Part shown: positions 42,257 through 64,000 of the stretch, in pieces
Layout of the letters: each line of letters opens with the position of its first letter
Numbering within the stretch: the stretch's first letter is position 1
The notes under the pieces: model-generated
Database searches by the model: none
What the model saw: only the letters and a program-made list of their open reading frames with translations
Told to the model about the DNA's origin: nothing
Made by a program: the position numbers and the translations under genes
Source of the DNA: an uncultured Gammaproteobacteria bacterium
Lineage (GTDB): Bacteria; Patescibacteriota; Patescibacteriia; XYB2-FULL-38-15
NCBI GenBank assembly: GCA_965231095.1
Contig: OZ246416.1
Location: 677,595 to 741,594 of the forward strand
Reading direction: 5' to 3'
DNA length: 64,000 bases

Positions 42257-42268
42257 AAAAATAATCTT

Positions 42269-42775: not shown

Positions 42776-42789
42776 ATTATTTATTTCGC

Positions 42790-42860: not shown

Positions 42861-42864
42861 CTTT

Positions 42865-42890
42865 AAAACCCACCAATTATGGTGGGTTTT
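42865..42890 (+). terminator. Perfect hairpin aaaacccacc-aattat-ggtgggtttt
   Basis: 10-bp stem after tRNA-Ala. Confidence 0.55.
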
Positions 42891-42960
42891 AAAATTGTTT
42901 CACGTGAAACAATTTTGATAAAGAAAGGTTTTTAAAGCAATTGTTTCACGTGAAACAATT
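42891..42960. promoter_or_regulatory. Two copies of a perfect 22-26 bp palindrome AATTGTTTCACGTGAAACAATT (CACGTG core), 21 bp apart; candidate dimeric transcription-factor operator
   Basis: 42891-42916 and 42939-42960 are exact self-complementary copies. Confidence 0.5.
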
Positions 42961-43255
42961 AATAAATTACATATTTTAATAAATTAAATGTTTTTAATTA
43001 TTATAAAATATAGATTATTTTTTTGATTAATGATAAATTTTTTATTTGTGAAAAGAACGATGACATTTTGTGGATAACTTGTAAGTAAAATTTACCGTAT
43101 CGCTAGGAAACTGGTTTTATCGGCGTTGGGGGGGGTGGGATAGAGGGTGAGTGGTGTCGAGTGGTTTTTAACAAAAAAGTGAACATTAATCTTAACACAA
43201 TGTGTAGAATAACTTACACATAGTCAATGAACTAAAAAGTTGTTCACATCTGCGA

Positions 43256-43284
43256 TTGACTTTTTCGTAAAATCGTGGTATAAT
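43256..43284 (+). promoter_or_regulatory. Textbook sigma70 promoter TTGACT-17-(TGg)TATAAT heading the surface-protein operon, followed by ~250-nt structured leader
   Basis: Hexamers, 17-bp spacer and extended -10 TG read directly. Confidence 0.6.
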
Positions 43285-43539
43285 AATTATGTAAGTTATG
43301 ATAGTTAATAGGGAAAGGAGATTTTGTTTCTTTTTCCTGATAGTTATCAACAATTTAATATAAAAGGTAGCAGAGGTTAAGGTTTCTTTCCCAATCAAGG
43401 TCGTTTTCAAAAACGATCTCGTCCCGGAGGCGGCGTTTGTCGGCCGGGAGTGCCCGTTAGTACCCCAAAGGTGCTTGTACCCGAGTACCTTGGAACAGAA
43501 ATTTTAATCTTAGGTTTACCTTGAAATAGGTGATCGACG

Positions 43540-44223
43540 TTGTTTATGAAATATTTTTTCATAAAACTCATTATAATCACTTTTGTTTTTATTTCTCTCA
43601 TTGCTCTGTGGAAGGCGCCAGTTAGCTTGGCCCTGATGAATTCGGAGAGTTATATTAACTGGATGGATTCGCTGAATTTTGGGGGAGAAGAAACCTCCAC
43701 TTCAACAAACTATAGATTCCAAGATACTTTAGGAGAGATTGGGACAGGGGAAATTTCGAGCACCAATTATGCCGGCTTGATAGGTTTTCGCCAATCTGAC
43801 GCGGATCCCAAGATGACTTTTTCCATTTCCGATACTTCAGTGGACTTTGGTACATTGTCTACGAGCGCGGTTTCTTCGGACAGCATTACGATTACAAGTA
43901 CGACAAACGCGGTGGATGGATATATTACAACAATTTTTGAAACAGAAAATTTAAAAACCGGGGCAGGTGCGGATATTGATGATGTGGCCGATGGAACAGT
44001 GACGGCCGGTTCGGAAGAATACGGTGTCAGAACTTCCGGCGCTGACGGACAGATGAACGGGGCGGACACGGGGATTACAACTTCGCCGCAAACAGTTGCT
44101 TCTAACGCGAGTTGGATAAATGGAAGCGCGGTGACAATAACTTTTAAGGCAGCAATTTCATCGCTTACGTCCGCAGGGGCTTACGCGCACAATGTCACAT
44201 TGATTTCCACCGGAAGATTTTAA
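43540..44223 (+). CDS. Secreted beta-rich surface protein, paralog A (C-terminal ...LISTGRF)
   Basis: Signal peptide; shares ANDGY/AVDGY, EE(Y/F)GV(R/S)TS and C-terminal (F/L)ISTG(T/R)F with next gene. Confidence 0.6.
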   Translation: MFMKYFFIKLIIITFVFISLIALWKAPVSLALMNSESYINWMDSLNFGGEETSTSTNYRFQDTLGEIGTGEISSTNYAGLIGFRQSDADPKMTFSISDTSVDFGTLSTSAVSSDSITITSTTNAVDGYITTIFETENLKTGAGADIDDVADGTVTAGSEEYGVRTSGADGQMNGADTGITTSPQTVASNASWINGSAVTITFKAAISSLTSAGAYAHNVTLISTGRF

Positions 44224-44254
44224 AAATTCGCAGTTTATTATTTTTTAAAAATAT

Positions 44255-45358
44255 ATGGAAAGAAAAAAATTAGTTAAAAAAATTGTTTGGGGGACTCTTC
44301 TGAGTTTAATTTTGATGTTGGGTTTTCCGTCGGTTCCGGCGCGCGCGACGCACAGTGTTATTAAAGATACGATGAGCCGCCTCAAGGCGTCCACCGCGTC
44401 AAATCACACAATTACTTTTACGCTGGATGCGTCAACAAATATTATTGAGAATGAAACAATCACTATTACTTTTGCCGCGTCTTGGGTAGATGGGTTAAAC
44501 AGCATTGATTGCGAGGATATTGATATTTTGGATGATGGTGTGGAAGAATCAATTGCTGAGGTGGCCGTAGAGGCTTGCGCGGCCGATGCCGATGAATGGG
44601 GGGCTGTGGTTGCGGGAGATGTTCTTACTTTGACTGCTCCGTCTACGGGCTCAACTTATATTGATGCGAGCTCGGTAGTAATCATAGAAATTGGTACAAA
44701 TGCAACAGAAGAACATACTGGCAATACGCAGATTACAAATCCGGTCGCGGCTAATAATTTGGTTGTGAATATTGGCGGTACGGGTGATAGCGGAACAGAT
44801 CCGGACGGGCAATTCGCGGTTTCGATTATCGCGGAAGATCAGGTGACAGTGACGGCCACGGTTTTGCCGACTTTTACTTTTACAATTAGCGCAAGTACGT
44901 GTGCCCTAGGGGACTTGACTCTTGGCACAGTGCAAACCTGCGGTGTAACTTTAACAACGACAACCAATGCCAACGATGGTTATGCCACGACGATAGTTGG
45001 AACGGCTTCTGGCGCAGAGATGGTGCATTCCAACGCCACAGATAACATTGATAATGCCGGGGGTACAGTGGTTAGTCCTAATTCGGAAGAGTTCGGCGTG
45101 AGCACGAGCGATTCGTTGGTAGATATTGAACAATTAACTACGCACGGTAGTTGTGTATTGGCCGATGGTGTCGCTGTTGATGTTAGTGGTGTATCAATTG
45201 ATACACTTGGCGATAATACGGCCGCTTCAATCGCCTCAAATACCGTTCCGGTTTCCGCGGAAGCAACAACCGCCTGCTTTGTCGCTTCTGCCGCGGCAAC
45301 AACGGCTGCCGGCGAATATTCTTCTACGGTAACATTTATTTCTACCGGCACATTTTAA
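44255..45358 (+). CDS. Secreted surface protein, paralog B; N-terminal module duplicated in the 756-aa dockerin protein
   Basis: Signal peptide; DTMSRLK...ENETITITF...GLNSIDCEDIDILDDGVEE...CAADADEWGA...LTLTAPST module also at start of 46533 gene; ends TFISTGTF. Confidence 0.6.
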   Translation: MERKKLVKKIVWGTLLSLILMLGFPSVPARATHSVIKDTMSRLKASTASNHTITFTLDASTNIIENETITITFAASWVDGLNSIDCEDIDILDDGVEESIAEVAVEACAADADEWGAVVAGDVLTLTAPSTGSTYIDASSVVIIEIGTNATEEHTGNTQITNPVAANNLVVNIGGTGDSGTDPDGQFAVSIIAEDQVTVTATVLPTFTFTISASTCALGDLTLGTVQTCGVTLTTTTNANDGYATTIVGTASGAEMVHSNATDNIDNAGGTVVSPNSEEFGVSTSDSLVDIEQLTTHGSCVLADGVAVDVSGVSIDTLGDNTAASIASNTVPVSAEATTACFVASAAATTAAGEYSSTVTFISTGTF

Positions 45359-45431
45359 TTTTTATAAAATAATGTTTTTCCCCGCGGTAATTTACGCGGA
45401 AAGAAAAACCATAATTTAAAATAGGGGGACT

Positions 45432-46454
45432 ATGAAAAAAGTTTTTTTCGCGATTACTCTGGCTGCTTTAATTTTTGGCTTGGCGCCGGCGATCGCCTCC
45501 GCGACAACAATTTCTCCGCCGGTCATAGAATTTGACGCGCGGCCGGGGGATACAATTGTTGATGTTATTAAATTGTTTAATGAGACGGCTGAAGAAGTTA
45601 CCTTGACCGGAGAGGTGAGAACTTTTAAAGCGTTGAATGAAACCGGCGCGCCGTCATTTCTTCCCCCTGAAGAATCAACTGATTTGGCAACTTGGTTAAA
45701 ACTTGACGAGGCGACAGTCACTCTGCCGGCTGACGAGAGAAAAGATATTTTGTTTAGTATTAATGTTCCGGAAAACGCCGAGCCGGGCGGACACTTTGCC
45801 GGAATTCTTTGGACGCCGACTGGCGCACCAGCATTAGAAGGAAGCGGAGTTGGCATTACCATGAAAACCGGAACTTTGGTTTTGGTTCGCGTGGCAGGAG
45901 ATGTTAATGAGACCGGACGGCTGGCGAGTTTTACGGCCGACAGAGCTTCTTATAATTATTTGCCTGTTAATTTTTCAGTTCGTTTTGAAAATTTAGGAAA
46001 TGTTCATTTAAAACCGGCGGGCGTGATTGAAATTAAAAATTTGTTAGGAAGAAAAGTCGCCGCGCTTCCGGTGAATGGAGATTTATCAAACGTTCTCCCC
46101 GAGTCAATAAGAAAATTTGATGCGACTTGGCAAAAAACAGAAGTGCCGCTTGGCGCGTCCGAATGGCAAAGAGAAATGGACAATTTTGCTTGGGGAAAAT
46201 ATACCGCCACGCTTATTTTGGATTATGGAATAGATGGGCAACAAACATCCGCCTCGCTCGCTTTCTGGGTTTTTCCGTGGCGCGTGACTCTTTTCTATCT
46301 GGCCATAGCGATAATAATTATTCTCTTAATTATCATTGGTATTAGAAGCTATAATAAGTGGGTTATAAAAAAATTCAGTCAGCAAAACAATCAACAAAAT
46401 AATCCTCCAAGCGATTTGCCAACCGACGGAGTTGACGATCAAAAAATGGAGTAG
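45432..46454 (+). CDS. Surface protein with signal peptide, beta-rich ectodomain and single C-terminal TM anchor + Q/N-rich tail (DUF916/DUF3324, CscA-like architecture)
   Basis: MKKVFFAITLAALIFGLAPAIASA signal; C-terminal VTLFYLAIAIIIILLIIIGIRSY TM; family call by architecture only. Confidence 0.5.
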   Translation: MKKVFFAITLAALIFGLAPAIASATTISPPVIEFDARPGDTIVDVIKLFNETAEEVTLTGEVRTFKALNETGAPSFLPPEESTDLATWLKLDEATVTLPADERKDILFSINVPENAEPGGHFAGILWTPTGAPALEGSGVGITMKTGTLVLVRVAGDVNETGRLASFTADRASYNYLPVNFSVRFENLGNVHLKPAGVIEIKNLLGRKVAALPVNGDLSNVLPESIRKFDATWQKTEVPLGASEWQREMDNFAWGKYTATLILDYGIDGQQTSASLAFWVFPWRVTLFYLAIAIIIILLIIIGIRSYNKWVIKKFSQQNNQQNNPPSDLPTDGVDDQKME

Positions 46455-46532
46455 GGGATTCGCGCGGAAAAAAAGAAATTTATAGAGCTTAGATAAAAGC
46501 GTAAAAACAAAAATCAAAATTAAAAAACGTCA

Positions 46533-48803
46533 ATGGGGGAGTTTGTAAGAAAAAAAAGTATTGGTATTTTAATCACGGTTCTTACCCTGACAAGTTTTTT
46601 CGTTGGATTCAATCAATCTGCTGCCAGCAAACTTTCTTCGGTCAGCGACACGATGAGCAGGCAGAAAATCGGAGTATCCGCCAATCATGAAATTATTTTT
46701 ACTTTAGCCGGCGGATCGGCAGTCACGGAAAATGAAACGATTACGATTATTTTTCCGACTGGTTTTGCTTCGGGGTTAAATAGTATAGAGTGTGGTGATG
46801 TTGATTTATTGGATGATGGAGTTCAAGAAAATTTTGCGGCGTCGCCCGGATGCGCGGCGGATGCGGACGAATGGGGCGCGGCGGTCAGTACAAGGACATT
46901 GACACTTACGGCGCCGTCTACGGCCGCGACTTATATTAATGCGAGCTCAGTTGTCACTTTGCGGGTTGGAACAAATACAACAGAAGAAGGGGTAGGCAAT
47001 GCGCAGATTGTTAATCCTGGGAGCGCGGGAAGTAAGGTAATAAATATTGGGGGAACTTTTGGCGATTCAATCGAGATTGCCATTGCCATTGTGACAAATG
47101 ATCAAGCCGCGGTTATCGGGACTATTCCGACAGGCGATACTCCGGGCGGCGGTTCACCCGGGTCAGACACGACGCCGCCAATTATTTCAAATTTAAGAGT
47201 GGAAAATATTTTACAAACTTCGGCCACGGTTCTTTGGGACACAAATGAACCGGCGACTTCAAGAGTGAATTATGGCTTGACGAGTGGCTATGGATCGTCC
47301 ACTACGGGCGACGGCGGAGGATTAGTTCTTAGCCATAGAGTTGATCTGACCGGACTCACGGCAGATACAATTTATCATTTTAATGTAGTGACAGCCGATT
47401 CGCTTGGACATACAACGACTACAGTTGACGATACTTTTAGAACGCTTTCCGGCCTAGATATTACCGCTCCTGTAATTTCCAATATTCAAGTTATAAATAT
47501 TACGGAGACCGGCGCGACTGTGACATGGACAACAAATGAGCCGGCAAATTCAAAAGTAGAATATGGTTTGACCGACGCGTATGAATTGGGAGAAATAACC
47601 GCCGCGGATTTTGTGGCTTCGCATAGTTTGCCGCTCGCGGGATTAACAGGAAACACAACATATCATTTCCGCGTGACGTCGGCTGATTCTTCCGGTAATG
47701 CCGCGACTTCTCCTGACGGCACTTTTACGACAATTGCTCCGGCAGACCTGACAGCGCCAATTATTTCAAATATCAGAGTTATAAATATTACAGAAAATTC
47801 CGCGACTGTTACTTGGGACACGAATGAGGCGGCAAATTCAAGGGTGCGATATGGTTTGACGGCAACTTACGGATTGGGAAATATTTTTTCCGCCGATTTA
47901 GTTTTGGCACACAGTATAAATTTAAGTTCCTTGACTCGCAGCACAATTTATCATTTTGAAATTACTTCATCTGACAGCTCGGGGAACACGGCCGTTTCCG
48001 GAGACAGAACTTTTTCAACTTTACCGGATATAATTCCGCCGGGAAATGTGACAGATTTTTTAGCCACGCCAACTGCGGCGAGAACAATTTTATTGACCTG
48101 GGTTAATCCAACTGATACTGATTTTGCCGGAGTTTTAATTAAGAGAAGTTTTACTGGGTATCCGGCAAGTCCGGCTGACGGAGAATTAGTTTTTGACGGA
48201 GTAGCAACCTCCTTTCCCGATACAGCAATCACTCCCGCAAATTATAACCGACCAATTTACTACACAGCTTTTGCCTATGACACAACTGGAAATTTTGCTT
48301 CAGGCGCTCTGGCAGAAGCGACGATTGAAGTGTCCCTGACATTAGACGTTAAGGCCTGGCCGGAAAAAAGATGGCCGCGAAGCGGAAATTGGTCAACCAG
48401 AGGCGCGGTGGAATTGAGGGATGTGGCAACATCAAATATTTTATATGAAGATACTGTTGCGACCTCAGACCTTGGTTTGGGCTCGGTGGAATTTCCCACG
48501 GCACCGATTGTAAATTATGATATTAGCTTTAAAGGTTTGTCGCATTTAAGAAAAATTTTGCGCGACGCTCCACTTTCGGGCGGAGTAAATTCATTGGATT
48601 TTACTTTAGCAAATACTTTTTATCTTTTGGCCGGAGACGTTCATCGCTCGTCTGATAATATGGTAAACGCCCTGGATATTTCCACCCTGCTCGGTTCTCT
48701 TTCCACCGGCAACGAAGTTACTGATTTGAATCATGACACCGGAGTCAATTCTTTGGATATAAATATTTTATTGGCCAACCTGATGGTCAGGGGAGACGAA
48801 TAA
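46533..48803 (+). CDS. Secreted multidomain protein: paralog-B-like N-module, three FN3-like repeats, C-terminal dockerin
   Basis: Three ~100-aa repeats (P(V/I)ISN(L/I)(R/Q)V...TV(L/T)W(D/T)TNE...YHF.(V/I)TS(A/S)DS.GN); C-terminal SDNMVNALDISTLL and DLNHDTGVNSLDINILLANL match dockerin Ca-binding DxNxDGxVNxxD repeats. Confidence 0.7.
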   Translation: MGEFVRKKSIGILITVLTLTSFFVGFNQSAASKLSSVSDTMSRQKIGVSANHEIIFTLAGGSAVTENETITIIFPTGFASGLNSIECGDVDLLDDGVQENFAASPGCAADADEWGAAVSTRTLTLTAPSTAATYINASSVVTLRVGTNTTEEGVGNAQIVNPGSAGSKVINIGGTFGDSIEIAIAIVTNDQAAVIGTIPTGDTPGGGSPGSDTTPPIISNLRVENILQTSATVLWDTNEPATSRVNYGLTSGYGSSTTGDGGGLVLSHRVDLTGLTADTIYHFNVVTADSLGHTTTTVDDTFRTLSGLDITAPVISNIQVINITETGATVTWTTNEPANSKVEYGLTDAYELGEITAADFVASHSLPLAGLTGNTTYHFRVTSADSSGNAATSPDGTFTTIAPADLTAPIISNIRVINITENSATVTWDTNEAANSRVRYGLTATYGLGNIFSADLVLAHSINLSSLTRSTIYHFEITSSDSSGNTAVSGDRTFSTLPDIIPPGNVTDFLATPTAARTILLTWVNPTDTDFAGVLIKRSFTGYPASPADGELVFDGVATSFPDTAITPANYNRPIYYTAFAYDTTGNFASGALAEATIEVSLTLDVKAWPEKRWPRSGNWSTRGAVELRDVATSNILYEDTVATSDLGLGSVEFPTAPIVNYDISFKGLSHLRKILRDAPLSGGVNSLDFTLANTFYLLAGDVHRSSDNMVNALDISTLLGSLSTGNEVTDLNHDTGVNSLDINILLANLMVRGDE

Positions 48804-48807
48804 AGAT

Positions 48808-51435
48808 ATGAGGAGGATAATTTATACAATTGCTGCGATTGGTTTCAGTTTTCTTCTCGGCCAAGCCGCGCTTGCCGCTCGCTTTGAATTATCTCCCGCT
48901 TCAACTGGTTTTATTACCGGATGCGATTCGGCGGTGAGCATTGAAATTGATACTGAAGGAGTAACTTCTGATGCGGCAAATGTTTTGGTTCATTATGATC
49001 CAACAAAAATTGAAATAGTTGATACAAATCCATCGGCAGCCGGAATCCAAATCAGAAATGGAAATGCTTACGAGGCTTATGCTGACAATACTGTTTTGTC
49101 GGGAAGCGGAGTGATTCGCTTAACTGGATTTTCTTTTATAAGTCATCTTTCCGGCCGAGCAACTTTCGGAACAATTATTTTCCGCGGACGACCCGGAGCA
49201 GCTGATGCAAATTTCACAATTGAATATGTGGCAGGTAGCACAACCGACAGCAATATTGCCGAATATCTTACAAGTGATGACCTTTTAACCGGAGTAGGAA
49301 ACGGCGCTTACACTTTTCGCGGCGGATCGTGCGTGGCCGACGTTGTCCCACCAAATGTTTTAAACCCAACTCCCGCACCAGATGAACGCGACGTGCCGCT
49401 TGATACAAATATTACTTTTGATATTCGCGACGCTCAGTCCGGAGTTGACTTGGATACCTTAACAATAAATGTTGACGGAACAATTTATACGCGCGACGGA
49501 TTAAGCAGATTTTCTTTTGTCGGGACGCCGGCGTCCTATGCCGTGGCAATAAACCCCAACACAGATTTTATTTTAGGTTCGCCGGTGCTTGTGGAAATCA
49601 ATGCTTCTGATTTTTCCGGAAACAGCATGGCTCCGTATCGTTATATTTTTAATCAGCCGGCCGCTCCGCCGCCAGTTCCGCCATCATGCGCCGCGCTTGG
49701 TTGCGCCACTCCGACTGAATGTACCGCCGATCCGGTTTTGCCGGAAGATATTGATGAAGAACCGACCGTTCCTGAATCGCAACAACTTTCTTTCTCGGAT
49801 TTTTCTTTTTACGGCGCTGATGGAACAATCCAACTTTTACCAAATCGAAATAATGAAATAACAACTCTCGCCGGGAGCTCGGTAATTGTTTCCGCCGCGG
49901 CGAGCAAATTTCCTCGTGAGGTGGCGCGGGTCGTCATAACCCTAAACGGTCGGTCGTATCTTCTCGGTTATAATTTGACGGCAGATGCGTATCAAACAAT
50001 TTTGCAAATGCCCGCCGCCGGATTGCATTCTTCAATAATTTTGATTGATTACGCGGACGATTCGCACGATCGCGTAGAGGGCGCTTTTTCACTTTTATCC
50101 CAAGGTTTTGTTTGGCAAGGAACAACGGCAAATAAATTATCCGGCGCAACCGTCACGCTTTACGAAAGTTCTCCCGCGTCTCGCGTTTGGGATGCCGCTC
50201 TTTATCGTCAAGATAATCCAATAACAACTAATGCGTCCGGCCAATTTTCATATCTCGTTCCGTTAGGTCGTTATTATTTAGTAATTTCAAAAGAGGGCTA
50301 TCGCGACCAAACCACGCCGGTTTTTGAAGTCGCAAACAATGTTGTAAATCCGAGCGTGGAAATTCTCGTCGTCCCTCCGCCGCTTGCCGAAGTTTGGGAT
50401 CCGGCCGCGCCCGTCACGGAAAATTTACAAAATGTTATTGAAAATTTAGGCCAAAAAACAATTTACGCAAGTGAAGTTTTACAAAAAGATGTTTTGGATA
50501 ATCCGGCGGTGGAAGAAAGTACGGAAAATATTGCCGCGCCGGCCGTGGCCGCCGTGGCCGTTGTCACTTACGGCACCGCCATTTCTCTTGGTTCGCTTTT
50601 GCCATTTTTACAATTACTTTTTACCCAACCGATTTTACTTCTTTTTCCAAAACGGAGAAAAGGTTGGGGAACGGTTTATCATTCTTTATCAAAAATGCCG
50701 GTGGATTTGGCGATTGTTCGTTTGTATGAAAAAGTGACAAATCGCTTGGTGCAAACTCGCGTGACGGATAAAGAAGGGCGCTTCGCGTTTTTCGTCCAGC
50801 CCGGACAATATTTTATCAAAGTAATAAAACCCAATTTTTCTTTCCCGACAAATTTTTTGAAAAATACAAAAGAAGATGTTAAATATTTTGATCTTTATCA
50901 CGGCGAAGAAATTACCGTGACGGAAAAAAATACTCTCGTCACGCCAAACATTCCGATTGATCCGGAGGGAGAGGGGAAAATGTCGCCTGACAAAAAAGTT
51001 CTCTTTGTTCATTTTGGAAGAAAAATTCAAAACATTATCGCGCCGTTGGGAATTGTCGCCGCCACTATTTCAGTTTTGGTCTCGCCGCAAATTTGGATGG
51101 TCGCGATTTTGGCCGGACACTGTTTACTCTATGCTCTTTTCCGACGATTGGCGAGAAGTAAAAAACCAAAGAGCTGGGGAATTGTTTATGAAAGTAAAAC
51201 TAAATCTCCGGTCGGACTCACTGTCGCAAGAATTTTTGAAACCGAATACAACAAACTTTTGGAAACACAAGTGACCGACGGCCGCGGCAGATATTCATTC
51301 TTGGTCGGCTCGAACGCCTACTACGTGACTTTCAGCAAACCGGGTTTTGAACCGAAGAGAACCGAGACGGTTGATCTTCGCGGAGCAAAAGAAGGAGGAG
51401 CGGTGGGGTTGGATGTGGGGTTGGATAAAGTATAG
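48808..51435 (+). CDS. Membrane-anchored scaffold-like protein: N-terminal cohesin-like domain, Ig-like region, carboxypeptidase-regulatory-like domains, two TM segments
   Basis: Signal peptide; FELSPASTGFITGCDSAVSIEIDTEGVTSDAANVLVHYDPTKIEIVD...FGTIIFRG resembles type-I cohesin (YDPxxLEI); CarbopepD_reg-like (TVTLYESSPAS...SGQFSYLVPLGRYYLVISKEGY; VRLYEKVTNRL...GRFAFFVQPGQYFIKV); TM ~50500-50640 and ~51050-51130. Confidence 0.65.
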   Translation: MRRIIYTIAAIGFSFLLGQAALAARFELSPASTGFITGCDSAVSIEIDTEGVTSDAANVLVHYDPTKIEIVDTNPSAAGIQIRNGNAYEAYADNTVLSGSGVIRLTGFSFISHLSGRATFGTIIFRGRPGAADANFTIEYVAGSTTDSNIAEYLTSDDLLTGVGNGAYTFRGGSCVADVVPPNVLNPTPAPDERDVPLDTNITFDIRDAQSGVDLDTLTINVDGTIYTRDGLSRFSFVGTPASYAVAINPNTDFILGSPVLVEINASDFSGNSMAPYRYIFNQPAAPPPVPPSCAALGCATPTECTADPVLPEDIDEEPTVPESQQLSFSDFSFYGADGTIQLLPNRNNEITTLAGSSVIVSAAASKFPREVARVVITLNGRSYLLGYNLTADAYQTILQMPAAGLHSSIILIDYADDSHDRVEGAFSLLSQGFVWQGTTANKLSGATVTLYESSPASRVWDAALYRQDNPITTNASGQFSYLVPLGRYYLVISKEGYRDQTTPVFEVANNVVNPSVEILVVPPPLAEVWDPAAPVTENLQNVIENLGQKTIYASEVLQKDVLDNPAVEESTENIAAPAVAAVAVVTYGTAISLGSLLPFLQLLFTQPILLLFPKRRKGWGTVYHSLSKMPVDLAIVRLYEKVTNRLVQTRVTDKEGRFAFFVQPGQYFIKVIKPNFSFPTNFLKNTKEDVKYFDLYHGEEITVTEKNTLVTPNIPIDPEGEGKMSPDKKVLFVHFGRKIQNIIAPLGIVAATISVLVSPQIWMVAILAGHCLLYALFRRLARSKKPKSWGIVYESKTKSPVGLTVARIFETEYNKLLETQVTDGRGRYSFLVGSNAYYVTFSKPGFEPKRTETVDLRGAKEGGAVGLDVGLDKV

Positions 51436-51451
51436 AAGCAGATTCAGTAGT

Positions 51452-51489
51452 TCCCCTCCCTTGATGGGAGGGGATTGAGGGGAGGGTGG
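51452..51489. repeat. G/C palindrome tcccctccc-ttgat-gggagggga + ttgaggggagggtgg upstream of DUF559 gene
   Basis: Mirror partner at 51826-51863 (cacccctctccc ... ccctctccc-acaa-gggagaggg). Confidence 0.6.
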
Positions 51490-51492
51490 TAA

Positions 51493-51840
51493 ATGAATCA
51501 TTTAATCACATTTGCCAAAAATTTAAGAGAAAATTCCACTGACGCAGAGAGATTATTGTGGCACTACCTTAGAGCAAAACAATTTGGTGATTTAAAGTTT
51601 AGAAGACAGCAGATCATTGGAAAATATATCGTAGATTTTGTTTGTTTTGCTAAGAAGATTGTTATTGAACTTGATGGAAGTCAACACGCAGATGTAGATA
51701 ACAAACTAAAAGATAAAATAAGAGATAGGTGGTTAGGAAGTCAAGGATTTATTGTTCTTCGTTTTTGGGACAATGATGTTTTAAAAAATATTGAAGGAGT
51801 TTGGGGTGAAATTGAAAAGCAGTTACACCCCTCTCCCTAA
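51493..51840 (+). CDS. DUF559 endonuclease-domain protein (Vsr/restriction-endonuclease-like fold), probable selfish element
   Basis: 115 aa, ...DFVCFAKKIVIELDGSQHAD...; flanked by CCCTCCC/GGGAGGG palindromes; strong GGAGG SD unlike neighbours. Confidence 0.7.
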   Translation: MNHLITFAKNLRENSTDAERLLWHYLRAKQFGDLKFRRQQIIGKYIVDFVCFAKKIVIELDGSQHADVDNKLKDKIRDRWLGSQGFIVLRFWDNDVLKNIEGVWGEIEKQLHPSP

Positions 51841-57900: not shown

Positions 57901-60900
57901 TTAATGCAAGAGGAACCGCTACCGGAGCAAGCGGTGTTTATGGAGAAGCAAGCGGCGCGGGCGCGGTTTACGGAGTTTATGGAAACGCTTCAGCCACCGG
58001 CGCAGTCACAAACTACGGCGGCGTTTTTTACGCCGCAGGTGATTCCGGCAGAGGTCTCTATAGTAACGCCACCGCCACCGGCGCGGTCACAAACTACGGC
58101 GGTTATTTTTCCGCCGCGGGTAATTCCGGCGCTGGTATTTACGGCACGGCCACCGCCACCGGCGCGATCACAAATTACGGCGGCGTTTTTTACGCCGCGG
58201 GTGATTCCGGCGCTGGCGTGTACGGCACGGCGACGTCTACTACGGGGACAAATTTCGGCGGATATTTTATTGCGGCCGGAACGGGTAGCGATACGGCCGG
58301 GGTTTATGGTTCATCTACCGGCACAGGAGGGACCAAAGCGCTCTATGGCGGGCGTTTTATCGCGGCAGGGGCGGTTACGGGAACAGCCGGCGTTTACGGT
58401 TCGGCGTCCGGCGCGGGAACGGTTTATGGCGTTCAGGGAAATGCTTCGGACACCGGCGCGGTGACAAATTATGGCGGATATTTTACGGCGGCGGGCGATA
58501 CCGGTCGCGGCGTCTACGGCGCGGCAACCGACTCGGGTGCGGTTGCAAATTACGGCGGATATTTTACAGCCGCGGGGACAAGCAGTGCGTCCGGAATTTA
58601 TGCTGAAGCAACGGGCGCAGGTCTGGTTAGCGGTGTTTATGGGTTAGCTAGTGACGCGACTGCCGGAACAGCTAATTTTGGAGGGTATTTTGAAGCTAGG
58701 GGTCCTCACAGCTGGAGTTATGGAGTCAAAGGTTATATTCCGAATAGCGTTGGTGGCAAAGCCGTTTGGGGCCACGCCGCGGAAACAACTTCAACAAATT
58801 ACGGAGGTTATTTTAAAGCGGATGGCGCGGGTGCCGCGGCGGCTGGTGTTTATGGCTGGGCTTCGGGGGCGGCCGCGGTCTACGGCGTTCAGGGGTATGC
58901 TTCAGATGCTACCGCCGTGACAAACTATGGCGGGTATTTTTCTGGTGGCGGGCAAACCGGGCGCGGGGTTTATGGTTCGGCCACTTATACTGGTGCGACG
59001 ACAAATTATGGTGGATTTTTTGAAGCGGCTGGAACTTCTTTCGCGACGGGCGTTTATGGCCGAGCGACTGGGGCGGGCACGGTCTACGGTGTTCAGGGAA
59101 TCGCAAGCGACACCACTGCTGTGACAAACTATGGCGGATATTTTATAGGATGGGGAGATACGGGATATGGTGTTTACGGCGAAGCGGGAGATACCGGCGC
59201 GGGCGCAAACTACGGCGGATATTTTAAGGGAAGAGGGAGCGGAGGAGCTTACGGGGTTTATGCTCTTGCTGACGCGGCATCCGGAACAAACTATGCTGTT
59301 TATGGCAACGTAACTTCTTCAACCGGTTACGGCGGTTATTTTACCGGCGGTTATGGACTTTACGGAAGCCGCGGACAAATTGCTAGAGCGCCGAGCGGTA
59401 ATGATACTTCTTATGCCCTGGTTGTTGAGGGCGCGGTTTGTATTGATGATAGTTCGGCAAATTGTCCGAGTACGCCAACTTCGGGCACGCTTTATACTGA
59501 AGGCGCGGCTTTGCAAACTTTTGACTTAGCCGAACTTTATGAATCAACCGAAGCGCTCGCGGCAGGTGATGTGGTAAGTGTTGATACCGGTAGCGCGAGA
59601 AAAATAGTGAAGTCAACCGAAGCATATCAAAATACAACAATGGGAGTTATTTCTACCGCTCCGGGTATTACTTTGGGCGGATGGAGCGCCGGACCAAATC
59701 AATATCCGGTGGCTTTGGCTGGCCGCGTGCCGGTAAAAGTGAGCGATGAAAATGGACCGATCGCGATCGGCGATATTTTAACTTCGTCTTCTACAACAGG
59801 CGTGGCAATGAAAGCAACTCGTCCGGGACAAAAAATCGGCGTGGCGCTTGAAGCGTGGAGCGGAACGGGCGTTGGAGTTCTTGAAGTATTTATGGCCCCC
59901 GGCTGGGATTCTGCCGGAACAATTGCCACTGATGGCACAGCAATTTTCTTGAATGATACTTTTACTTTTAATAAATTGGATACTGCGGATAATATTATTC
60001 AGGGGTATGGTTCAAAAGGTTTGTCTTTCCGCGGATCAGGATGGGACGGCACGGCAGGGCAAAATGTTGAAATGAAACTTTTGAGTAAAGTTACTGACGC
60101 GACAAATTATAAACTCGCAGTTTTAAATAATGCGGGTGAAGAAGTGGCTTATGTTGGAGGAGATGGATCGTTTGGAGTTACCGGAAAATTTTATCCGGCG
60201 GCAACGACCGGAGCGCAAACTGACGCGTATATTTTCTATGCCGCAAATTATATGCGAACCAATGCTGATGGTTGGTCAACCGGTTCGTTTGATTTCGCGG
60301 AAATGTTTTTGTCGCACGAGTTGCTCGAAGCCGGCGACATTGTCACGCTTGATGAAGCAACAAATGAGTATGTTAAAAAATCAGTCGCGGCTTATGATAA
60401 TATGGCGCTTGGTATTGTTTCCACAAAACCGGGATTTTTAGCCGGAACAAACGTTGACTTTAATAATCCTTCGGCAGACCAAGGGTATCCGATTGCCTTA
60501 GCCGGACGCGTGCCGACCAAGGTTTCCGCGGAAAACGGGCCGATTCGTCCGGGCGACTTTTTAACAACTTCCGCGACCTCGGGGGTAGCGATGAAGGCGA
60601 CCGAGTCGGGAATGATTTTGGGCACGGCGCTTGAAAGTTTTGACGGGCAGGGAATCGGGCTGGTAAAAGTTTTTGTAAATTTATCTTGGTACAACGTGGC
60701 AAGCGAATCAACACCGGTTGGTGAAATGGCGCAGCTCACGTTGACGGGCGATTTGAACATGGCGGGAAATTATATTTTAAATGTTGGGAAAATTGTCGGG
60801 GTGGATGAAAAATGGAGTATTGATGAAAATGGAATTTTGAAAGTGAAATTGATAGCGGAAGACGCGAGCGAGAAAGAAATGTTTGGATTGACTTCGGCCA

Positions 60901-61355
60901 AAGTGGAATTGACATTGTCCGGTACCGGTCGATTGGAAAATGGCACGAGCATGATTGATTTAAGTTTAATTGATCCTGATTTTGCCAAAAATATTTCCGC
61001 GGAAACACCGATAAAAGTGATAGTCACCTTAACTGAACCTGCGAATGGTATATATGTCGCGGAAAAATCCGCTTATGGTTTCCGAGTGGCGGAATTGAAT
61101 GCCGGAACAACGGACGCGGCGTTTGATTGGATTGTTATTGCGAGAAGAAAAGGATATGAAGATGTGTTGGCTGGCGGCGAGGTTCCTCTCCCGAGCGAAC
61201 CGGCGCCAAGCGCGCCCGCTCCGTCAGAACCCGTGCCTTCCGAGCCGGCACCAGAAGTTCCTCCGAGCGAACCGCCTCCGGAAGTTCCTCCGTCAGAACC
61301 GGCACCAAGCGAGACGCCTCCTCCAGAGCCAGCACCGACAGAGCCCACGCCATAG
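51999..61355 (+). CDS. Giant (3118 aa) N-terminally membrane-anchored cell-surface fibre/adhesin-like protein with ~27-aa Gly-rich repeat arrays, tail-fibre-like xVGIGTxxP motifs, duplicated C-terminal beta modules and Pro-rich tail
   Basis: TM anchor LTLLVFVLGILSLTSVGIMTL; repeats consensus TGAVTNYGGYF.AAGDSG.GVYG.A.A (blocks ~53810-54480 and ~57120-59345); duplicated 125-bp segment 55420-55545/56075-56200; duplicated ~110-aa modules ~59520-59900 and ~60290-60650; PxxPSEP tail. Confidence 0.8.
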   Translation: MFSPGGEKPNIVIKSQGGTNLTLLVFVLGILSLTSVGIMTLSVVEQLRPVAFTAINKQLNYQGKLQNAGGITLPDGNYSMKFSVYDAAAAGTRLWTECGTVGTPTARTVAVANGVFSVLLGDTASGACPGPANANAITLDFNSDAYYLGLTVEADSEMTPRKRLGASGYAFNADLLDGLNTSAAGGSNAFVPVTDASGHLTLTQNLTLGGVFKNSDGSAASPSYTFTNDPNTGFYSAAGNNIGVAANGAMIAYLMATTNYTDSYFYSPRFITPATTNYPMTLTGRIDDGAAAVGVILDNSTTLATAGAKIVSFKNNTTEKAAIGLNGEVMAGAGTALLPALSFLGDPNTGFYTYSANQIGIANDGGITGVFSSGSLYINYILALSGNTLNLTGSMADGGTAVGVKLGSSVDLTVAGSKIASFVDNNTTEKSAIGLNGEIMAGAGTALLPSLSFLGDPNSGMYTYASDTLGFAVGGTAVGVWDGSTIYVPAVHPLATTALTLKGRVADGGTAVGVILDNTTSLTTAGAKLVSIKNATVEKAYIDKDGNAYLPGLNVSGLTASLAVYTDGSKNLTSTAPTSGAIGYWSRATTTLSPTTANDNISVSSNVTGAAITGTASATGAVINYGVYGTAAGNSAKGVYGSATATGAVLNFGGDFYAAGNSGQAVRGTASATGAVTNYGGVFYAAGDTGFGIVADATSTNAGQNFGGYFYARGTTGVAVFGNAPATGAVTNYGGSFQAAGNSGQAVRGNATATGAAANYGGTFYSAGNSGVAVYGSASATGAVTNYGGQFYSAGDTGMAVFGYATGAGLNYGIYGSTNSASGWSGYFNGGLGMYASAARINSLTASSAVYTDASKNLTSTAPTSGAIGYWSRSSTTLSTATAGDIVSLSGGLNMNASPITASYISTNPWGTNSVGSANGVGLQMNRLLGANTGRYTVTSSGINTTSVLFDNFYDSAGTIAVGDTGVITVDFNPQLAWTASTATGFVYQNGIIVMSFYNTVIPTDVTVEVYRCSPNVDCAAGTGTDAWVTIYSTTTNDKNPLVISPTPSVNYIKRIRFTFADGDPTYGSWISELEWFPTRDASANQLAVLPKYFNQSLDVSWTSWNMKKVADWSTTATISNAGAAYFAGPVGVNDAGPDASLEVVNDGSGDSFLVADTNDGDATPFVIQADGDVGIGTAAPAALLHIAKDSTYNSEAAAGIKITDSTLTDTGLLLGADATNDIAYIQSMDPGTGYTRALSINPNGGMTRLFMNRGAAAGTGISWYLPTFTAWAEYMAQATQTLAGPTANITAPSGTIVTSWALRSFIENASNYGWTFESGTSTGQPSVVAEIRSSDGTIRSNTSVLAAVSMGIGDDTPDASLEVVNDGSGDSFLVADTNDGDATPFVIDPDGDVGIGTTGPLTKFHVNSANTLTGSYHQAVITSSDTAAIDKGGSIGFGGAYTGTTLTQWAGISGRKENVTAGNYAGYLALETRANGGNLTEQVRIDSAGSVGIGTTGPDRKLDVLAASSPQLRLTQVDNTTYADFQVDSNGDLIMNVDGISSQLVLDNGGNIGIGTAAPAGALDIVSANAPTLRLATNATDATVKYGYVASRHYTNAEQDLMVFMSGSSATENSIRLGGGSGSFNATNRISFYTAADQITLDGTERMKIDSSGNIWINSLDASSIVYTDASKNLTSTPPGAGTIGYWSRGGTTLSPATANDVVSVSGTGATAITGTSSAAGGKGIYGTATDATAVANYGVYGTAAGTGALSAGVYGVASGAANSVTGVYAEASNTGAYENYGGAFFARGETGVGIYGEGVSTAAAVNYGGKFSAHGKATGSAAVYGAAPEAGAFTSYGGYFTTVSDTGRGVYGSATASGAVTNYGGYFTSAGTGILTSGVYGEASGAANNIAGIYGKASNTGAYTNFGGVFYAAGETGIGIRGEATSTAAAINFGAKFYANGAASGTAGVYGQGVDTTAIVNYGGYFNARGTATGASGVYGEASGAGAVYGVYGNASATGAVTNYGGVFYAAGDSGRGLYSNATATGAVTNYGGYFSAAGNSGAGIYGTATATGAITNYGGVFYAAGDSGAGVYGTATSTTGTNFGGYFIAAGTGSDTAGVYGSSTGTGGTKALYGGRFIAAGAVTGTAGVYGSASGAGTVYGVQGNASDTGAVTNYGGYFTAAGDTGRGVYGAATDSGAVANYGGYFTAAGTSSASGIYAEATGAGLVSGVYGLASDATAGTANFGGYFEARGPHSWSYGVKGYIPNSVGGKAVWGHAAETTSTNYGGYFKADGAGAAAAGVYGWASGAAAVYGVQGYASDATAVTNYGGYFSGGGQTGRGVYGSATYTGATTNYGGFFEAAGTSFATGVYGRATGAGTVYGVQGIASDTTAVTNYGGYFIGWGDTGYGVYGEAGDTGAGANYGGYFKGRGSGGAYGVYALADAASGTNYAVYGNVTSSTGYGGYFTGGYGLYGSRGQIARAPSGNDTSYALVVEGAVCIDDSSANCPSTPTSGTLYTEGAALQTFDLAELYESTEALAAGDVVSVDTGSARKIVKSTEAYQNTTMGVISTAPGITLGGWSAGPNQYPVALAGRVPVKVSDENGPIAIGDILTSSSTTGVAMKATRPGQKIGVALEAWSGTGVGVLEVFMAPGWDSAGTIATDGTAIFLNDTFTFNKLDTADNIIQGYGSKGLSFRGSGWDGTAGQNVEMKLLSKVTDATNYKLAVLNNAGEEVAYVGGDGSFGVTGKFYPAATTGAQTDAYIFYAANYMRTNADGWSTGSFDFAEMFLSHELLEAGDIVTLDEATNEYVKKSVAAYDNMALGIVSTKPGFLAGTNVDFNNPSADQGYPIALAGRVPTKVSAENGPIRPGDFLTTSATSGVAMKATESGMILGTALESFDGQGIGLVKVFVNLSWYNVASESTPVGEMAQLTLTGDLNMAGNYILNVGKIVGVDEKWSIDENGILKVKLIAEDASEKEMFGLTSAKVELTLSGTGRLENGTSMIDLSLIDPDFAKNISAETPIKVIVTLTEPANGIYVAEKSAYGFRVAELNAGTTDAAFDWIVIARRKGYEDVLAGGEVPLPSEPAPSAPAPSEPVPSEPAPEVPPSEPPPEVPPSEPAPSETPPPEPAPTEPTP
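53810..59345 (+). repeat. Coding tandem repeat arrays (81-bp / 27-aa Gly-rich units, >30 copies in two blocks) inside giant gene
   Basis: Recurrent aactacggcgg(a/c)tattttac...gccgcgggtgattccggc... units. Confidence 0.8.
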
Positions 61356-61397
61356 CTTGTCATTCTGAGCCGTAGTGAAGCAATATATAAAGATATA

Positions 61398-61849
61398 AAT
61401 CCAAAATCTAAATTTCAAATGTCAAACCAAGCCCAAAATCCAAATGATAAAAAGAAATATGATCTCGAGGAAAGAACAGCGAAGTTTGGCGAGGACATCA
61501 TAAAATTTGCCTGCGCTTTATCCGCCACACCGGTTAATCGACCATTAATCAGTCAAATTGTCCGTTCGGGCACGAGCGTCGGAGCAAATTACATGGAAGC
61601 CGACGGTGCTGAATCTAAAAAAGATTTCCATCATAAAATCGGCATTTGTAAAAAAGAATCGAAAGAGACAATGCATTGGTTTAGAATGATTGCTATGGCA
61701 AACCCGACGAAGAAAGATGAGTGTCGCAATCTTTGGAAAGAAGCCCACGAACTTTCTTTAATCTTTTCGGCGATTATTAGAAAGAAAAAGCAATTTGGAT
61801 TTTAGGTTTGGGATTTGGTTTGGCCTTTGGATTTTGACATTTGGGTTTT
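61398..61849. mobile_element. Four-helix-bundle gene cassette bounded by ~45-bp imperfect inverted repeats built of CCAAAAT-like units (61398-61446 / 61801-61849)
   Basis: revcomp(61801-61849)=aaaacccaaatgtcaaaatccaaaggccaaaccaaatcccaaacctaaa versus 61398-61446 aaatccaaaatctaaatttcaaatgtcaaaccaagcccaaaatccaaat. Confidence 0.55.
61419..61805 (+). CDS. Four-helix-bundle protein (rRNA intervening-sequence-type protein family)
   Basis: 128 aa; TAKFGEDIIKF...RSGTSVGANYMEA...KKDFHHKIGICKKESKETMHWF pattern typical of this family. Confidence 0.7.
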   Translation: MSNQAQNPNDKKKYDLEERTAKFGEDIIKFACALSATPVNRPLISQIVRSGTSVGANYMEADGAESKKDFHHKIGICKKESKETMHWFRMIAMANPTKKDECRNLWKEAHELSLIFSAIIRKKKQFGF

Positions 61850-62066
61850 ACAAATAGCAAATTGTAAGCGAGTTGTGCCTTCGGGTACGGGTCATAACTC
61901 GTATATAATATCAACTCCCCACCGCAAGGTGAGGAGTTGTTGTATTCAATTAAATATTTTTATTTTTTGTGGTATAATATATGAAAGAGGAGGATTAGTG
62001 GATAAGCTGAAGAAAGAGAAAAAAACAGAGAAAAACAAAATTTAATATAAATACATAAGTTTTTCT

Positions 62067-64000
62067 TATGTTTGACAAAGTTTCCAAGGTAGAAAAAGAA
62101 AATAACCCCGGAGGTTATTGTTTGCGGAGGAAGAAGAGTAATTTACGCCCTCTAGTTTTGATTTTGGGTTTTTTTGCCATGGCGAGCCTTGGGGTTATTG
62201 CTTTTGCCTTATTGCAAAAATGGAACGTGCCAGCTTCCGCCGCTCCGGGAATTTATAAAACTTTAAATTATCAAGGAAAGTTAGAAGACGCGGACGGCGT
62301 GACGGTCGCCGACGGGGCGTACAACATTAAATTTACAATTTACGACGCGGCCGCGGTTGGAAACGTTTTGTGGACAGCGCGCGAATCAGATGCTTGCGGC
62401 GCGGCTTTTAACCCATCGGCAAAATCTGTCACAACCTCGCTCGGAGTTTTTTCCACGCAACTTGGCGAGTCTGGGGACTGTCCAATAAATTTGGATTTTA
62501 ATGACGACTCATATTATTTGGGCATAACAGTTGGCGCGGATTCAGAAATGACGCCGCGGAAAAGGCTTGGCGCGGCCGGTTATGCTTTTAATGCAGATCT
62601 TTTAGATGGTCTTAATACTTCTGCGGTGGGTGGCGCTTCGGCTTTTGTCCCGGCGACTGATTCGTCCGGGAATTTGGTTTTGACCGGTAACATTACTTTC
62701 GATACCACAACTTTTTACCTTGATTCCGCAAACGATAATATTGGTATTGGCACTGTGGCGCCGGAGATCTTTCGCACCGTGGATTTAGTAACAGCAAAAA
62801 AATACGGAGTTTACGCTTCATCAAGTTCGGCCGTAAATCATATGGCGGTAATTTACGCGGAAGCGACAGATACGACAAACATTAATCAAATGGGCGGATC
62901 TTTTTCTGTGGCAAGTCCGAGCGGTAAGGGTGTTTTGGGTACAGCCATCACGTCAGGGAATCCTCTCGTTGCAAATTACGGTGGATATTTTACCGCGGCA
63001 GGCGATTCCGGAGTCGGCGTTTATGGCGAAGCATCGGCGAGCGGCGTTGGTCTTACTAATTACGGTGGCTCTTTTACAGCAAACGGCGATACGGGTCGCG
63101 GCGTTTACGGCTTGGCCATTGCAACAGATGGGGTAAATTACGGCGGAAATTTTAGAGCGAATGGAGCGGGCGGATACGGCGTTTACGGTTTGGCTGCGAG
63201 CGCGGCTGCTACCGCAAATTACGGCGGATATTTCAAGGCGGCGGGTCAGGGCGCGTATGGCGCTTATGGTTGGGCTTCAAATACCGCAGTAGCAAATTAC
63301 GGCGGATATTTTAAATCAGATGGCGCAGGCGGCTACGCTGTTTATGGAACAGCAACCGACGCGACGGCGGCAACTAATTACGGAGGATATTTTTTGGCGG
63401 CGGGTCAGGGTGGTTATGGCGCTTATGGTTACGCGAGTGAGGCGACGATAGTAAACACCGGTGTTTATGGGCAGGCCGACGGTCCGGCCGGATATGGCGT
63501 CTATGGCTACGCGGCAAATGTGGCCGGCGGAAATTATGGTGGATATTTTTTGGGTGCCGCTGCGGCGAGTTATGGCGCTTATGGAAAAGCAACGGGCACT
63601 GGCGGCTACGGCGTTTATGGCTGGGCTTCAAATACTGCGGCAACAAATTATGGAGGATATTTTAAATCAGACGGAGCGGGCGGCTACGGGGTTTACGCTT
63701 CAGCCACCGACGTTACAGCTGTTGTAAATTACGGAGGATTTTTTCAAGCCAATGGGCGGGGCGGAATAGGCGTTTACGGCGCTGCCCCTGACTCCACGGC
63801 CTTAGCAGTAAATTTTGGAGGCTACTTTGTTACGAACGGAGTCGGCACGGGGTCAGCCGGAGTTTATGGACAAGCATCAGGGGCAGGGACAGTGGCCGGT
63901 GTTTATGGACTTGCCGCTGACAGCGCCGGAGGCACGGCAAATTACGGAGGATTTTTTCAAGCCAATGGACAGGGCGGCGCGCGCGGTGTTTATGGTAAAG
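62067..64000 (+). CDS. Second giant surface fibre-like protein (paralog of 51999-61355), 3' end beyond window
   Basis: ATG 62067; TM anchor LVLILGFFAMASLGVIAF; shared N-module LNYQGKLEDADGVTVADGAYNIKFTIYDAAAVGNVLW...PRKRLGAAGYAFNADLLDGLNTSA; then NIGIGTVAPE and 27-aa Gly-rich repeats; absent from ORF track because no stop in window. Confidence 0.75.

Follow-up and report, generated by a model that had tools for sequence, protein, structure and literature searches.

An apparent, divergent Pam-type pilus operon with a putative cohesin-dockerin anchor and adjoining MAT-like fibre genes in a genome of the candidate phyla radiation

How the ultrasmall bacteria of the candidate phyla radiation (CPR), very few of which can be cultured, find and hold their hosts is an open question. 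The CPR DNA analysed here, a stretch of contig OZ246416.1 of 64 kb (the window), contains nine plus-strand open reading frames (ORFs), P1 to P9, between positions 42865 and 64000, and the question that this locus raises is what these genes build. A sequence-only reading of the same DNA had seen a cell-surface attachment locus, which, as a chromosomal locus of a CPR genome, is supported by the analysis, and had described it as a composite of adhesin types whose combination is not a described system, which is not. P1 to P5 read as parts of one donor-strand pilus, P1 and P2 match the NCBIfam models CPR_pilus_PamT and CPR_Pam_pilin_C, and a recent preprint on the Pam pilus describes such a structure. 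The locus is apparently a divergent operon for a Pam-type pilus whose cohesin-dockerin anchor is split; two genes for MAT-like fibres come after it, and two mobile cassettes interrupt the series. With a probability of roughly 0.75, P1 to P5 encode a Pam-type pilus of a monoderm CPR bacterium that is assembled by donor-strand exchange without an usher. The core of the system is already described; what the locus may add is an anchoring model, a link to the WxLIP proteins and a wide distribution.

The Pam pilus of Candidatus Mycosynbacter amalyticus was reported in a 2026 preprint (bioRxiv 10.64898/2026.03.03.709456), from which the following description is taken. Its filaments, resolved by cryo-electron microscopy, consist of two-domain pilins, PamA and PamB, which have a conserved linker and C-terminal strand and two or three paired cysteine sets. 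PamT is a single-domain tip subunit, PamC and PamD are PapD/FimC-like chaperones that retain a C-terminal membrane helix, and the terminator PamR has an N-terminal strand, two FnIII domains and a transmembrane (TM) segment. The neighbourhood includes a conserved tail-fibre-like gene and ATP synthase genes, and the pili detach easily.

P1 matches the tip model NF058579 (CPR_pilus_PamT; E 4e-18, 65.7 bits, cutoff 240) and the pilin C-domain model NF058581 (CPR_Pam_pilin_C; E 5.7e-9, 36.2 bits, cutoff 55), and the latter is also matched by residues 213-367 of P2 (E 2.4e-7, 30.9 bits). Residues 90-227 of P1 align to the C-domain of P2 (residues 205-367) at 35% identity (E 1e-11), and the two proteins end in LISTGRF and FISTGTF. 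The paralogy and the shared ISTG(T/R)F motif noticed in the sequence-only reading thus hold, but its label of TasA/WxL-like small secreted proteins is not specifically supported because structure searches with P2 return just generic immunoglobulin-like (Ig-like) and pilin/adhesin folds and no W-x-L motif is present. Neither this motif nor the Pfam WxL domain was found in P1 or P2, the motif is absent from P1 to P5 altogether, and the Peptidase_M73/TasA family domain of TasA and camelysin fibres was not found at the locus. PamA and PamB structures are absent among the Protein Data Bank (PDB) matches in the P2 structure searches, PDB sequence searches with P1 and P2 gave nothing useful, and the homology search with P1 returned no protein named PamT.

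Relatives of the locus were collected by scanning GTDB species genomes with a P3 alignment, which confirmed 352 relatives; the best 80 loci form the set for locus counts. NF058581 matches 39 of 46 P2 relatives, with a best E value of 3e-40, and the PamT model matches 13 of the 46. The pilin family is continuous with Pam, the sub-cutoff scores in the window notwithstanding. It comprises 5,928 cluster representatives at E up to 0.001 (clusters at 50% identity). Conservation peaks at the start of the mature protein, in the linker AEDQVTVTATVLPT, at TNAxxGY within the C-domain and in the last strand. The exact C-terminal residue is F or Y in 114 of 133 pilin-family ORFs from related loci.

P1 consists of a signal peptide, a short N-terminal extension and the acceptor domain, which is the pilin C-terminal domain, and has neither a pilin N-domain nor a linker. 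It is at least 80% identical among Falkowbacteria-like relatives. P1 is a putative PamT-like tip subunit, a PamT homologue with the same layout and not an equivalog, as the NF058579 cutoff is missed. P2 has an N-terminal beta-sandwich, a linker and presumptive donor strand at about residues 193-206 (VTVTATV), and a C-terminal acceptor domain ending in TGTF. Its AlphaFold 2 model (predicted local distance difference test (pLDDT) 87.5) has two beta domains, with residues 193-206 outside any strand, and the protein contains six cysteines. P2 is predicted from this model to be a two-domain shaft pilin of Pam type with a conserved linker and an open Ig-like C-domain.

Larger proteins containing pilin-like parts occur among the relatives. 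In L018 (3-8723), L031 (2-7765), L042 (2-7765) and L045 (2-7735), which are of Paceibacteria type, the gene upstream of the shaft pilin codes for at least 2,500-2,900 aa; the last ~75 residues of these giants resemble the pilin C-domain and end in TYVTVGLF, which suggests a tip adhesin that replaces the small P1. The top match of the pilin profile, P0360, is 3077 aa long and is matched in ten stretches, of which the one with the highest score corresponds to the pilin N-domain.

In nearly all 80 loci, the gene for the chaperone candidate, P3, is immediately preceded by a gene of the pilin family. P3 is much better conserved than the pilins. Its AlphaFold 2 model (pLDDT 91.1) comprises two Ig-like domains and a helix at residues 283-322, the C-terminal TM, which is also found by the hydrophobicity scan and is present in 90 of 91 complete P3 relatives. 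The best Foldseek matches are WxLIP of Enterococcus faecium (9i25_C and 9i1y; 1.7e-11), followed by the chaperone-usher chaperones CfaA, CsuC, FimC and Caf1M (1e-9 to 1e-7). Pfam WxLIP_PGBD (PF06030, formerly DUF916) reaches 18.3 bits in P3 (cutoff 27.3), close homologues are annotated as DUF916 or bear PF06030, and Pfam gives no DUF3324 match in P3. The earlier description of this protein as CscA (DUF916/DUF3324)-like is thus right at the fold level, given the structural match to WxLIP and the DUF916 annotation of close homologues. On the basis of the model, P3 is predicted to be a membrane-anchored pilus chaperone that is both PamC/D-like and DUF916/WxLIP-like, its likeness to PamC and PamD being one of fold and architecture. 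For WxLIP itself, the prediction is that a beta-hairpin strand enters the WxL partner (PMC10599100), which by analogy is the same logic as that of a pilus chaperone; neither WxL nor DUF916 is mentioned in the Pam preprint (10.64898/2026.03.03.709456).

The same matches feed a different explanation, a non-filamentous complex of the WxL/Csc type, in which P3 would hold P1 and P2 as monomeric surface adhesins, with P4 and P5 as additional proteins of the surface. In its predicted fold and TM, P3 resembles WxLIP (DUF916, DUF3324 and TM), which is its best structural match, its Pfam match to WxLIP_PGBD is weak and its close homologues carry the DUF916 annotation. As in the Firmicutes systems (PMC10599100; 9i25, 9i1y), the genes cluster with those of small and large secreted partners, and strand complementation of the partner is predicted for WxLIP as well. 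However, the partners at this locus have no WxL domains or motifs, no LPXTG protein is encoded, and P1 and P2 belong to a family that NCBIfam ties to the filaments resolved by cryo-electron microscopy, whereas WxL/Csc systems are not known to make filaments. The linker suits chain formation, and its conserved motif recurs at the mature N-terminus of the relatives' dockerin proteins, which fits strand donation in trans along a chain. A complex of monomeric adhesins is therefore an unlikely account of the locus. A sortase-type pilus was rejected as well, on the absence of an LPXTG motif, no search aimed at sortases having been made.

P4 begins with a pilin N-domain plus linker (residues 1-200, nt 46533-47135; linker AAVIGTI). 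From residue 3 on, this part aligns to residues 3-206 of P2 at 50% identity (E 1e-51), and P4 has no match to the P2 C-domain, the acceptor. Pfam fn3/Pur_ac_phosph_N models match in three stretches, with FN3 domains at about residues 216-500, followed by a beta-rich module. The C-terminus (residues ~700-756, nt ~48630-48803) resembles a dockerin: Dockerin_1 scores 18.1 bits (E 0.003, cutoff 22.9), PDB dockerin 5k39_B matches at E 0.03, and the relatives' dockerin profile aligns to residues 706-747. The second dockerin repeat, DLNHDTGVNSLD, is near-canonical and the first is degenerate. Unlike a PamR-type terminator, P4 has no TM beyond the signal peptide in the hydrophobicity scan, the TM part being in P5. 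P4 is predicted to be a chain terminator and stalk: like PapH and PamR, with which the analogy is drawn, a subunit able to donate a strand and unable to receive one should end the chain.

P5 begins with a signal peptide and a cohesin-like domain (residues ~24-175, nt 48877-49332), contains Big_5 and CarboxypepD_reg-like domains (CarboxypepD_reg, E 1e-19) and has TM segments at residues 575-613 and 740-774 (hydrophobicity scan). The Pfam cohesin score is 12.9 bits in P5 itself (E 0.13), 17.6 bits in its L004 orthologue (E 0.0047) and 31.4 bits, against a cutoff of 24.1, in its positional equivalent in L022 (E 2.5e-7). With a profile of the P5 domain (A3), full-length alignments to two cohesin structures of the PDB, 1g1k and 2vn5, reach E ~0.05. 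P5 is predicted to be a cohesin-like multi-pass membrane anchor. The dockerin protein and cohesin membrane scaffold of the sequence-only reading are backed by the relatives, while the matches in P4 and P5 themselves are sub-threshold.

The main argument for P4 and P5 working together, with cohesin and dockerin as the pilus socket, is a pattern of fusion and splitting. In 10 loci, a single protein of 1038-1859 aa corresponds to P4 residues ~2-599 plus P5 residues ~283-875. These fused proteins omit exactly P4 residues 600-756 and P5 residues 1-289, the dockerin-like and cohesin-like modules, and do fit the PamR type, in which one terminator protein combines donor strand, FnIII domains and a C-terminal TM. 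In 41 other loci, the gene of a dockerin protein of ~300 aa begins within ~90 bp of the chaperone gene. The C-terminus of these short proteins is a canonical two-repeat dockerin (one matches PDB dockerin 2y3n_B at 4e-4), and the linker motif (V/I)x(V/I)(T/S)A(T/V)V stands directly behind the signal peptide in about 40 of 45 dockerin-profile proteins. One to three cohesin-profile proteins are encoded 3' of the dockerin protein in nearly all such loci, and each of the 83 complete proteins that match the cohesin profile contains a TM in addition to its signal peptide. From this pattern we infer that P4 may bind P5 through the two modules. The words cohesin and dockerin are absent from the text of the Pam preprint; an essential dockerin protein has been noted in a Saccharibacterium (PMC10633639) and could not be related to this system.

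Cohesins and dockerins could also form a cellulosome-like scaffold that assembles enzymes or glycan binders for polysaccharide use and makes no pilus. Signatures of both modules are present in P4, P5 and their positional equivalents, a two-repeat, dockerin-like module ends a secreted protein and an N-terminal cohesin-like one sits on a cell-bound scaffold encoded next door, and glycan-active proteins of the cell surface commonly contain FN3 and CarboxypepD_reg domains. However, no enzyme is associated with the modules here: P1 to P5 contain no catalytic or carbohydrate-binding module (Pfam, NCBIfam). The dockerin proteins bear the pilin linker motif (the donor strand) or a pilin N-domain at their beginning and are always encoded behind the chaperone gene, the scaffold is an integral membrane protein, and both modules are degenerate in P4 and P5 themselves. 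The fused variants, moreover, swap the cohesin-dockerin pair for a covalent link to the membrane part, which points to tethering and not to enzyme recruitment. A scaffold for polysaccharide use is very improbable.

The Pam-type pilus would be assembled as follows. Sec would export all subunits, and P3, kept in the membrane by its C-terminal helix, would hold the incomplete Ig-like C-domain of each. P1, which offers an acceptor domain only, would begin the fibre at its tip. Copies of P2 would then add at the base, the linker strand (VTVTATV) of each entering the C-domain of the preceding subunit, until P4, with an N-domain and linker but no acceptor, ends polymerisation. The three FN3 domains of P4 would serve as a stalk, and its dockerin-like end would bind the cohesin-like N-domain of P5 and thus tether the pilus to the membrane.

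This scheme shares with the Pam pilus its CPR-specific, Sec-dependent and usher-less character, pilins of two domains in which the linker is conserved and the Ig-like C-domain incomplete, a single-domain tip, a PapD-like chaperone held by a C-terminal membrane helix, a donor-only terminator containing FN3 domains and an adjoining tail-fibre-like gene. It differs in having one shaft pilin and one chaperone where Pam has PamA/B/E and PamC/D. The terminator, too, is different: it contains a whole pilin N-domain and three FN3 domains, has a dockerin-like end and no anchor of its own, and is followed by a cohesin-like membrane protein. The lineage looks Falkowbacteria-like and not like Saccharimonadia or Microgenomatia.

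Chaperone-usher pili (Pap, Fim, Csu, CFA/I) offer a second comparison. Common to both are subunits with an Ig-like fold that a strand completes in trans, chaperones folded as two domains, a tip/shaft/terminator logic (PapH) and subunits that end on a conserved aromatic residue. In contrast, the system here has no usher and no outer membrane, its chaperone is membrane-tethered, and its shaft subunits have an extra N-domain and donate an internal linker rather than an N-terminal extension. No usher family was found among the nine ORFs (Pfam, NCBIfam), and CPR cells are not known to have an outer membrane.

Two generalisations, which we jointly rate at slightly below even odds, go beyond this locus. 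Across much of the CPR, a Pam-type terminator (a donor strand or pilin N-domain plus a dockerin) may plug into membrane cohesins, with lineages switching between this non-covalent joint and a fused covalent anchor. The match between P3 and WxLIP suggests, as the other part of this tentative reading, a single ancestral membrane-chaperone system of monoderm bacteria behind the Pam pili of the CPR, the WxL/Csc clusters of Firmicutes and chaperone-usher pili.

Several points weigh against a Pam-type pilus. P1 and P2 both score under the curated NCBIfam cutoffs (65.7 against 240 bits and 30.9 against 55), P3 matches no NCBIfam Pam model, and the comparison with the M. amalyticus Pam system runs through the models NF058579 and NF058581 and the description in the preprint. 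WxLIP, the closest solved relative of P3, belongs to a system from which filaments are not known. In P4 and P5 themselves, dockerin and cohesin score below threshold, and the first dockerin repeat of P4 is degenerate. ATP synthase genes are reported neighbours of Pam, yet a scan of 20 upstream ORFs gave no match to a family of this kind. Finally, what is observed are homologies, predicted folds, domain orders, synteny and the fusion/split pattern, and it is from these that we infer donor-strand insertion, polymerisation, the order of assembly, cohesin-dockerin binding and a role in host contact.

Downstream of the anchor gene, P7 and P9 are paralogs, 54% identical over the N-domain and 44% over the Gly-rich repeats, in agreement with the two paralogous giants (at least 3118 and at least 644 aa) with tail-fibre-like and Gly-rich regions of the sequence-only reading. 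Both have N-terminal membrane anchors (TM 18-45 in P7 and 25-51 in P9; hydrophobicity scan). Residues 55-215 of P7 form a MAT-N-like domain (NF053851 Bdello_MAT_N; E 3.5e-4, 20.4 bits, cutoff 60), the corresponding match of P9 reaches E 0.002-0.006 (16.4-17.8 bits, same cutoff), and the model matches 16 of 18 related N-domains, at best with 3.2e-10. Three stretches of P7 at residues ~1160-1630 match the beta-helix part of Bd2133 (PDB 8ond_A; E 2.4e-5 overall). Gly-rich repeats with a period of 27 residues occupy residues ~600-830 and ~1700-2460, and a C-terminal module of ~130 aa is duplicated (2508-2632 and 2765-2895) ahead of a Pro-rich tail. P7 has no credible Pfam family, whether searched as the whole protein or as four segments, its repeats, C-terminal module and tail belong to no known family, and PDB sequence searches with its N-terminal and C-terminal regions gave nothing useful.

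MAT fibres are trimeric prey-recognition adhesins of Bdellovibrio (PMC10769870). P7 and P9 are, judging from the matches above, putative membrane-anchored fibres related to them and by analogy probably trimeric. The likeness (PMC10769870; NF053851; 8OND) would extend to a conserved N-domain near the cell, beta-helix segments with G-x-V-G-I-G-T motifs, variable distal parts and a bacterium living on other bacteria as the owner of the gene. Unlike MAT fibres, the proteins here match under the family cutoff, and P7, which is longer by a factor of three, starts with a membrane anchor and contains the long 27-residue Gly-rich blocks and the duplicated C-terminal module; an S74 chaperone domain was not detected in P7. 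Of the 80 related loci, 23 contain fibre genes of the MAT-N type, which mostly follow close behind the gene for the anchor; this agrees with the tail-fibre-like neighbour of the preprint. P7 and P9 would form fibres separate from the pilus, of a MAT/tail-fibre kind whose genes commonly adjoin such operons, and pilus and fibres together would be the likely host-contact apparatus.

The upstream flank of the locus is housekeeping (RuvC, glycogen enzymes, PBP1A, SMC, TrmD, PolA, HolA, RmuC, NUDIX), and no capsid, terminase, portal or integrase family was found among the ORFs scanned. Matches to PHROG are weak ('major tail protein' for the FN3 region of P4; a virion structural protein, E 0.0014, for P7). 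In IMG/VR, no relatives were found for P3 or, by single-sequence scans that reach close relatives only, for the N-domain and the C-terminal region of P7. A prophage remnant with the giants as phage tail fibres, for which the beta-helix motifs that P7 shares with fibre proteins related to phage adhesins (PMC10769870) and the PHROG matches could speak, is rejected as scarcely credible in the light of these flanks and absences, the N-terminal membrane anchors of both fibres and the constant place of the module relative to the chaperone in many CPR lineages.

Two side observations concern the flank. An ORF listed at 42173-42775 overlaps a tRNA-Arg gene (42184-42257); the true coding region, that of a NUDIX hydrolase, has a later start. 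For DNA polymerase I, the 5'-3' exonuclease (36343-37257) and the polymerase (37282-39063) are encoded by separate genes.

The features of the locus are listed in Table 1.

Table 1. Genes and upstream elements of the putative pilus and fibre locus (window positions).
Feature	Position	Strand	Size or description
Palindrome TGTTTCACGTGAAACA	42896-42911 and 42942-42957		16 bp, two perfect copies
Sigma-70-type promoter	43256-43284	+	TTGACT-17-TATAAT with TG extension
5' leader	43285-43539	+	roughly 250 nt; RNAalifold, four close relatives
P1	43540-44223	+	227 aa
P2	44255-45358	+	367 aa
P3	45432-46454	+	340 aa
P4	46533-48803	+	756 aa
P5	48808-51435	+	875 aa
P6	51493-51840	+	115 aa
P7	51999-61355	+	3118 aa, complete
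P8	61419-61805	+	128 aa
P9	62068 to beyond 64000	+	at least 644 aa, cut by window end

The gaps between P1 and P5 are, in order, 31, 73, 78 and 4 bp. An N-terminal hydrophobic segment is found by the hydrophobicity scan in P1 to P5, P7 and P9 and not in P6 or P8. Thus, seven of the nine ORFs have an export signal or signal-anchor of the kind that the sequence-only reading had assigned to all of eight genes; the count of eight was wrong, and P6 and P8 have none.

The consensus promoter at 43256, proposed from the sequence before, is confirmed as the top sigma-70 match in the 19.5 kb scanned (42700-62200); it agrees at 11 of 12 positions, and both hexamers are invariant in three relatives (L002-L004). 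Upstream of it by ~300-360 bp, beyond the end of tRNA-Ala at 42861, lie the two copies of the palindrome TGTTTCACGTGAAACA, against a chance expectation of 0.06 copies. Two or three copies are also present upstream of the pilin genes in L002, L003, L004, L054, L066 and L070, and the pair is a candidate operator of the operon. A sub-threshold Rfam match to Leu_leader on the minus strand (42862-42955) was treated as chance; it coincides in part with the palindromes and with the terminator hairpin of tRNA-Ala. The single perfect DnaA box of the 64 kb window, TTATCCACA, lies between tRNA-Ala and the promoter (43069-43077, minus strand), and its motif TTTGTGGATAACTT is kept in L002-L004.

The leader between promoter and P1 contains a conserved long-range helix of ~28 bp (~43332-43360 with ~43494-43525), which encloses hairpins that vary between relatives. 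RNAalifold predicts 66 pairs, 17 of them with compensatory changes, a weak signal as it comes from just four close relatives, and the leader matches no Rfam family. At the other end of the locus, a 12-bp stem-loop (61912-61939) 3' of P8 and an extended -10 element, TGGTATAAT, near 61970 (within 61912-61978), ~90 bp before P9, suggest that P9 is transcribed separately, probably from its own promoter. A single 21 kb operon was set aside, as such an operon cannot be read from sequence and P9 probably has a promoter of its own.

P6 matches DUF559 (PF04480) at 6e-40, and P8 matches TIGR02436 (23S_rRNA_IVP) at 2e-22 and PF05635 at 5e-15, which place it in the four-helix-bundle family of 23S rRNA intervening-sequence proteins. 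Related genes occupy other positions elsewhere: a DUF559 gene lies between P4 and P5 in L004, a P8 homologue between the chaperone and the P4-like gene in L005, and genes of either type are absent from L003 in the synteny comparison of close relatives. Such shifting or absent positions fit mobile insertion. P6 would thus be a DUF559 endonuclease-like cassette and P8 a four-helix-bundle cassette, both mobile insertions outside the apparatus, as the sequence-only reading had supposed for two selfish cassettes of these kinds. G/C-rich hairpins at 51446-51484 and 51828-51862 flank P6 and may mark the ends of an inserted cassette.

The 80 best loci carry the titles Falkowbacteria, Kerfeldbacteria, Nomurabacteria, Gracilibacteria and others, and Mycosynbacter is not represented among these best 80 of the 352. 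The titles of the metagenome-assembled genomes (MAGs) containing L005, L021, L026, L012, L016 and L060 are Gammaproteobacteria, Rikenella, Pirellulales or Nanoarchaeia, and one protein match comes from a Bathyarchaeia MAG. Loci with such non-CPR titles are probably mis-binned or mislabelled contigs.

To judge from this locus, the Pam pilus, resolved so far in one cultured species of Saccharimonadia, has relatives well beyond that group. The locus offers a testable picture of the pilus base, in which a donor-only terminator is joined to the membrane by cohesin and dockerin or, elsewhere, fused to the anchor. If true, this would be a structural, non-cellulosomal use of cohesin and dockerin as a pilus socket, which could let pili be shed or exchanged; a non-covalent joint at the base would fit the easily detaching Pam pili of the preprint. 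The MAT-like giant fibres, kin of the prey-recognition proteins of a predator, may set host specificity.

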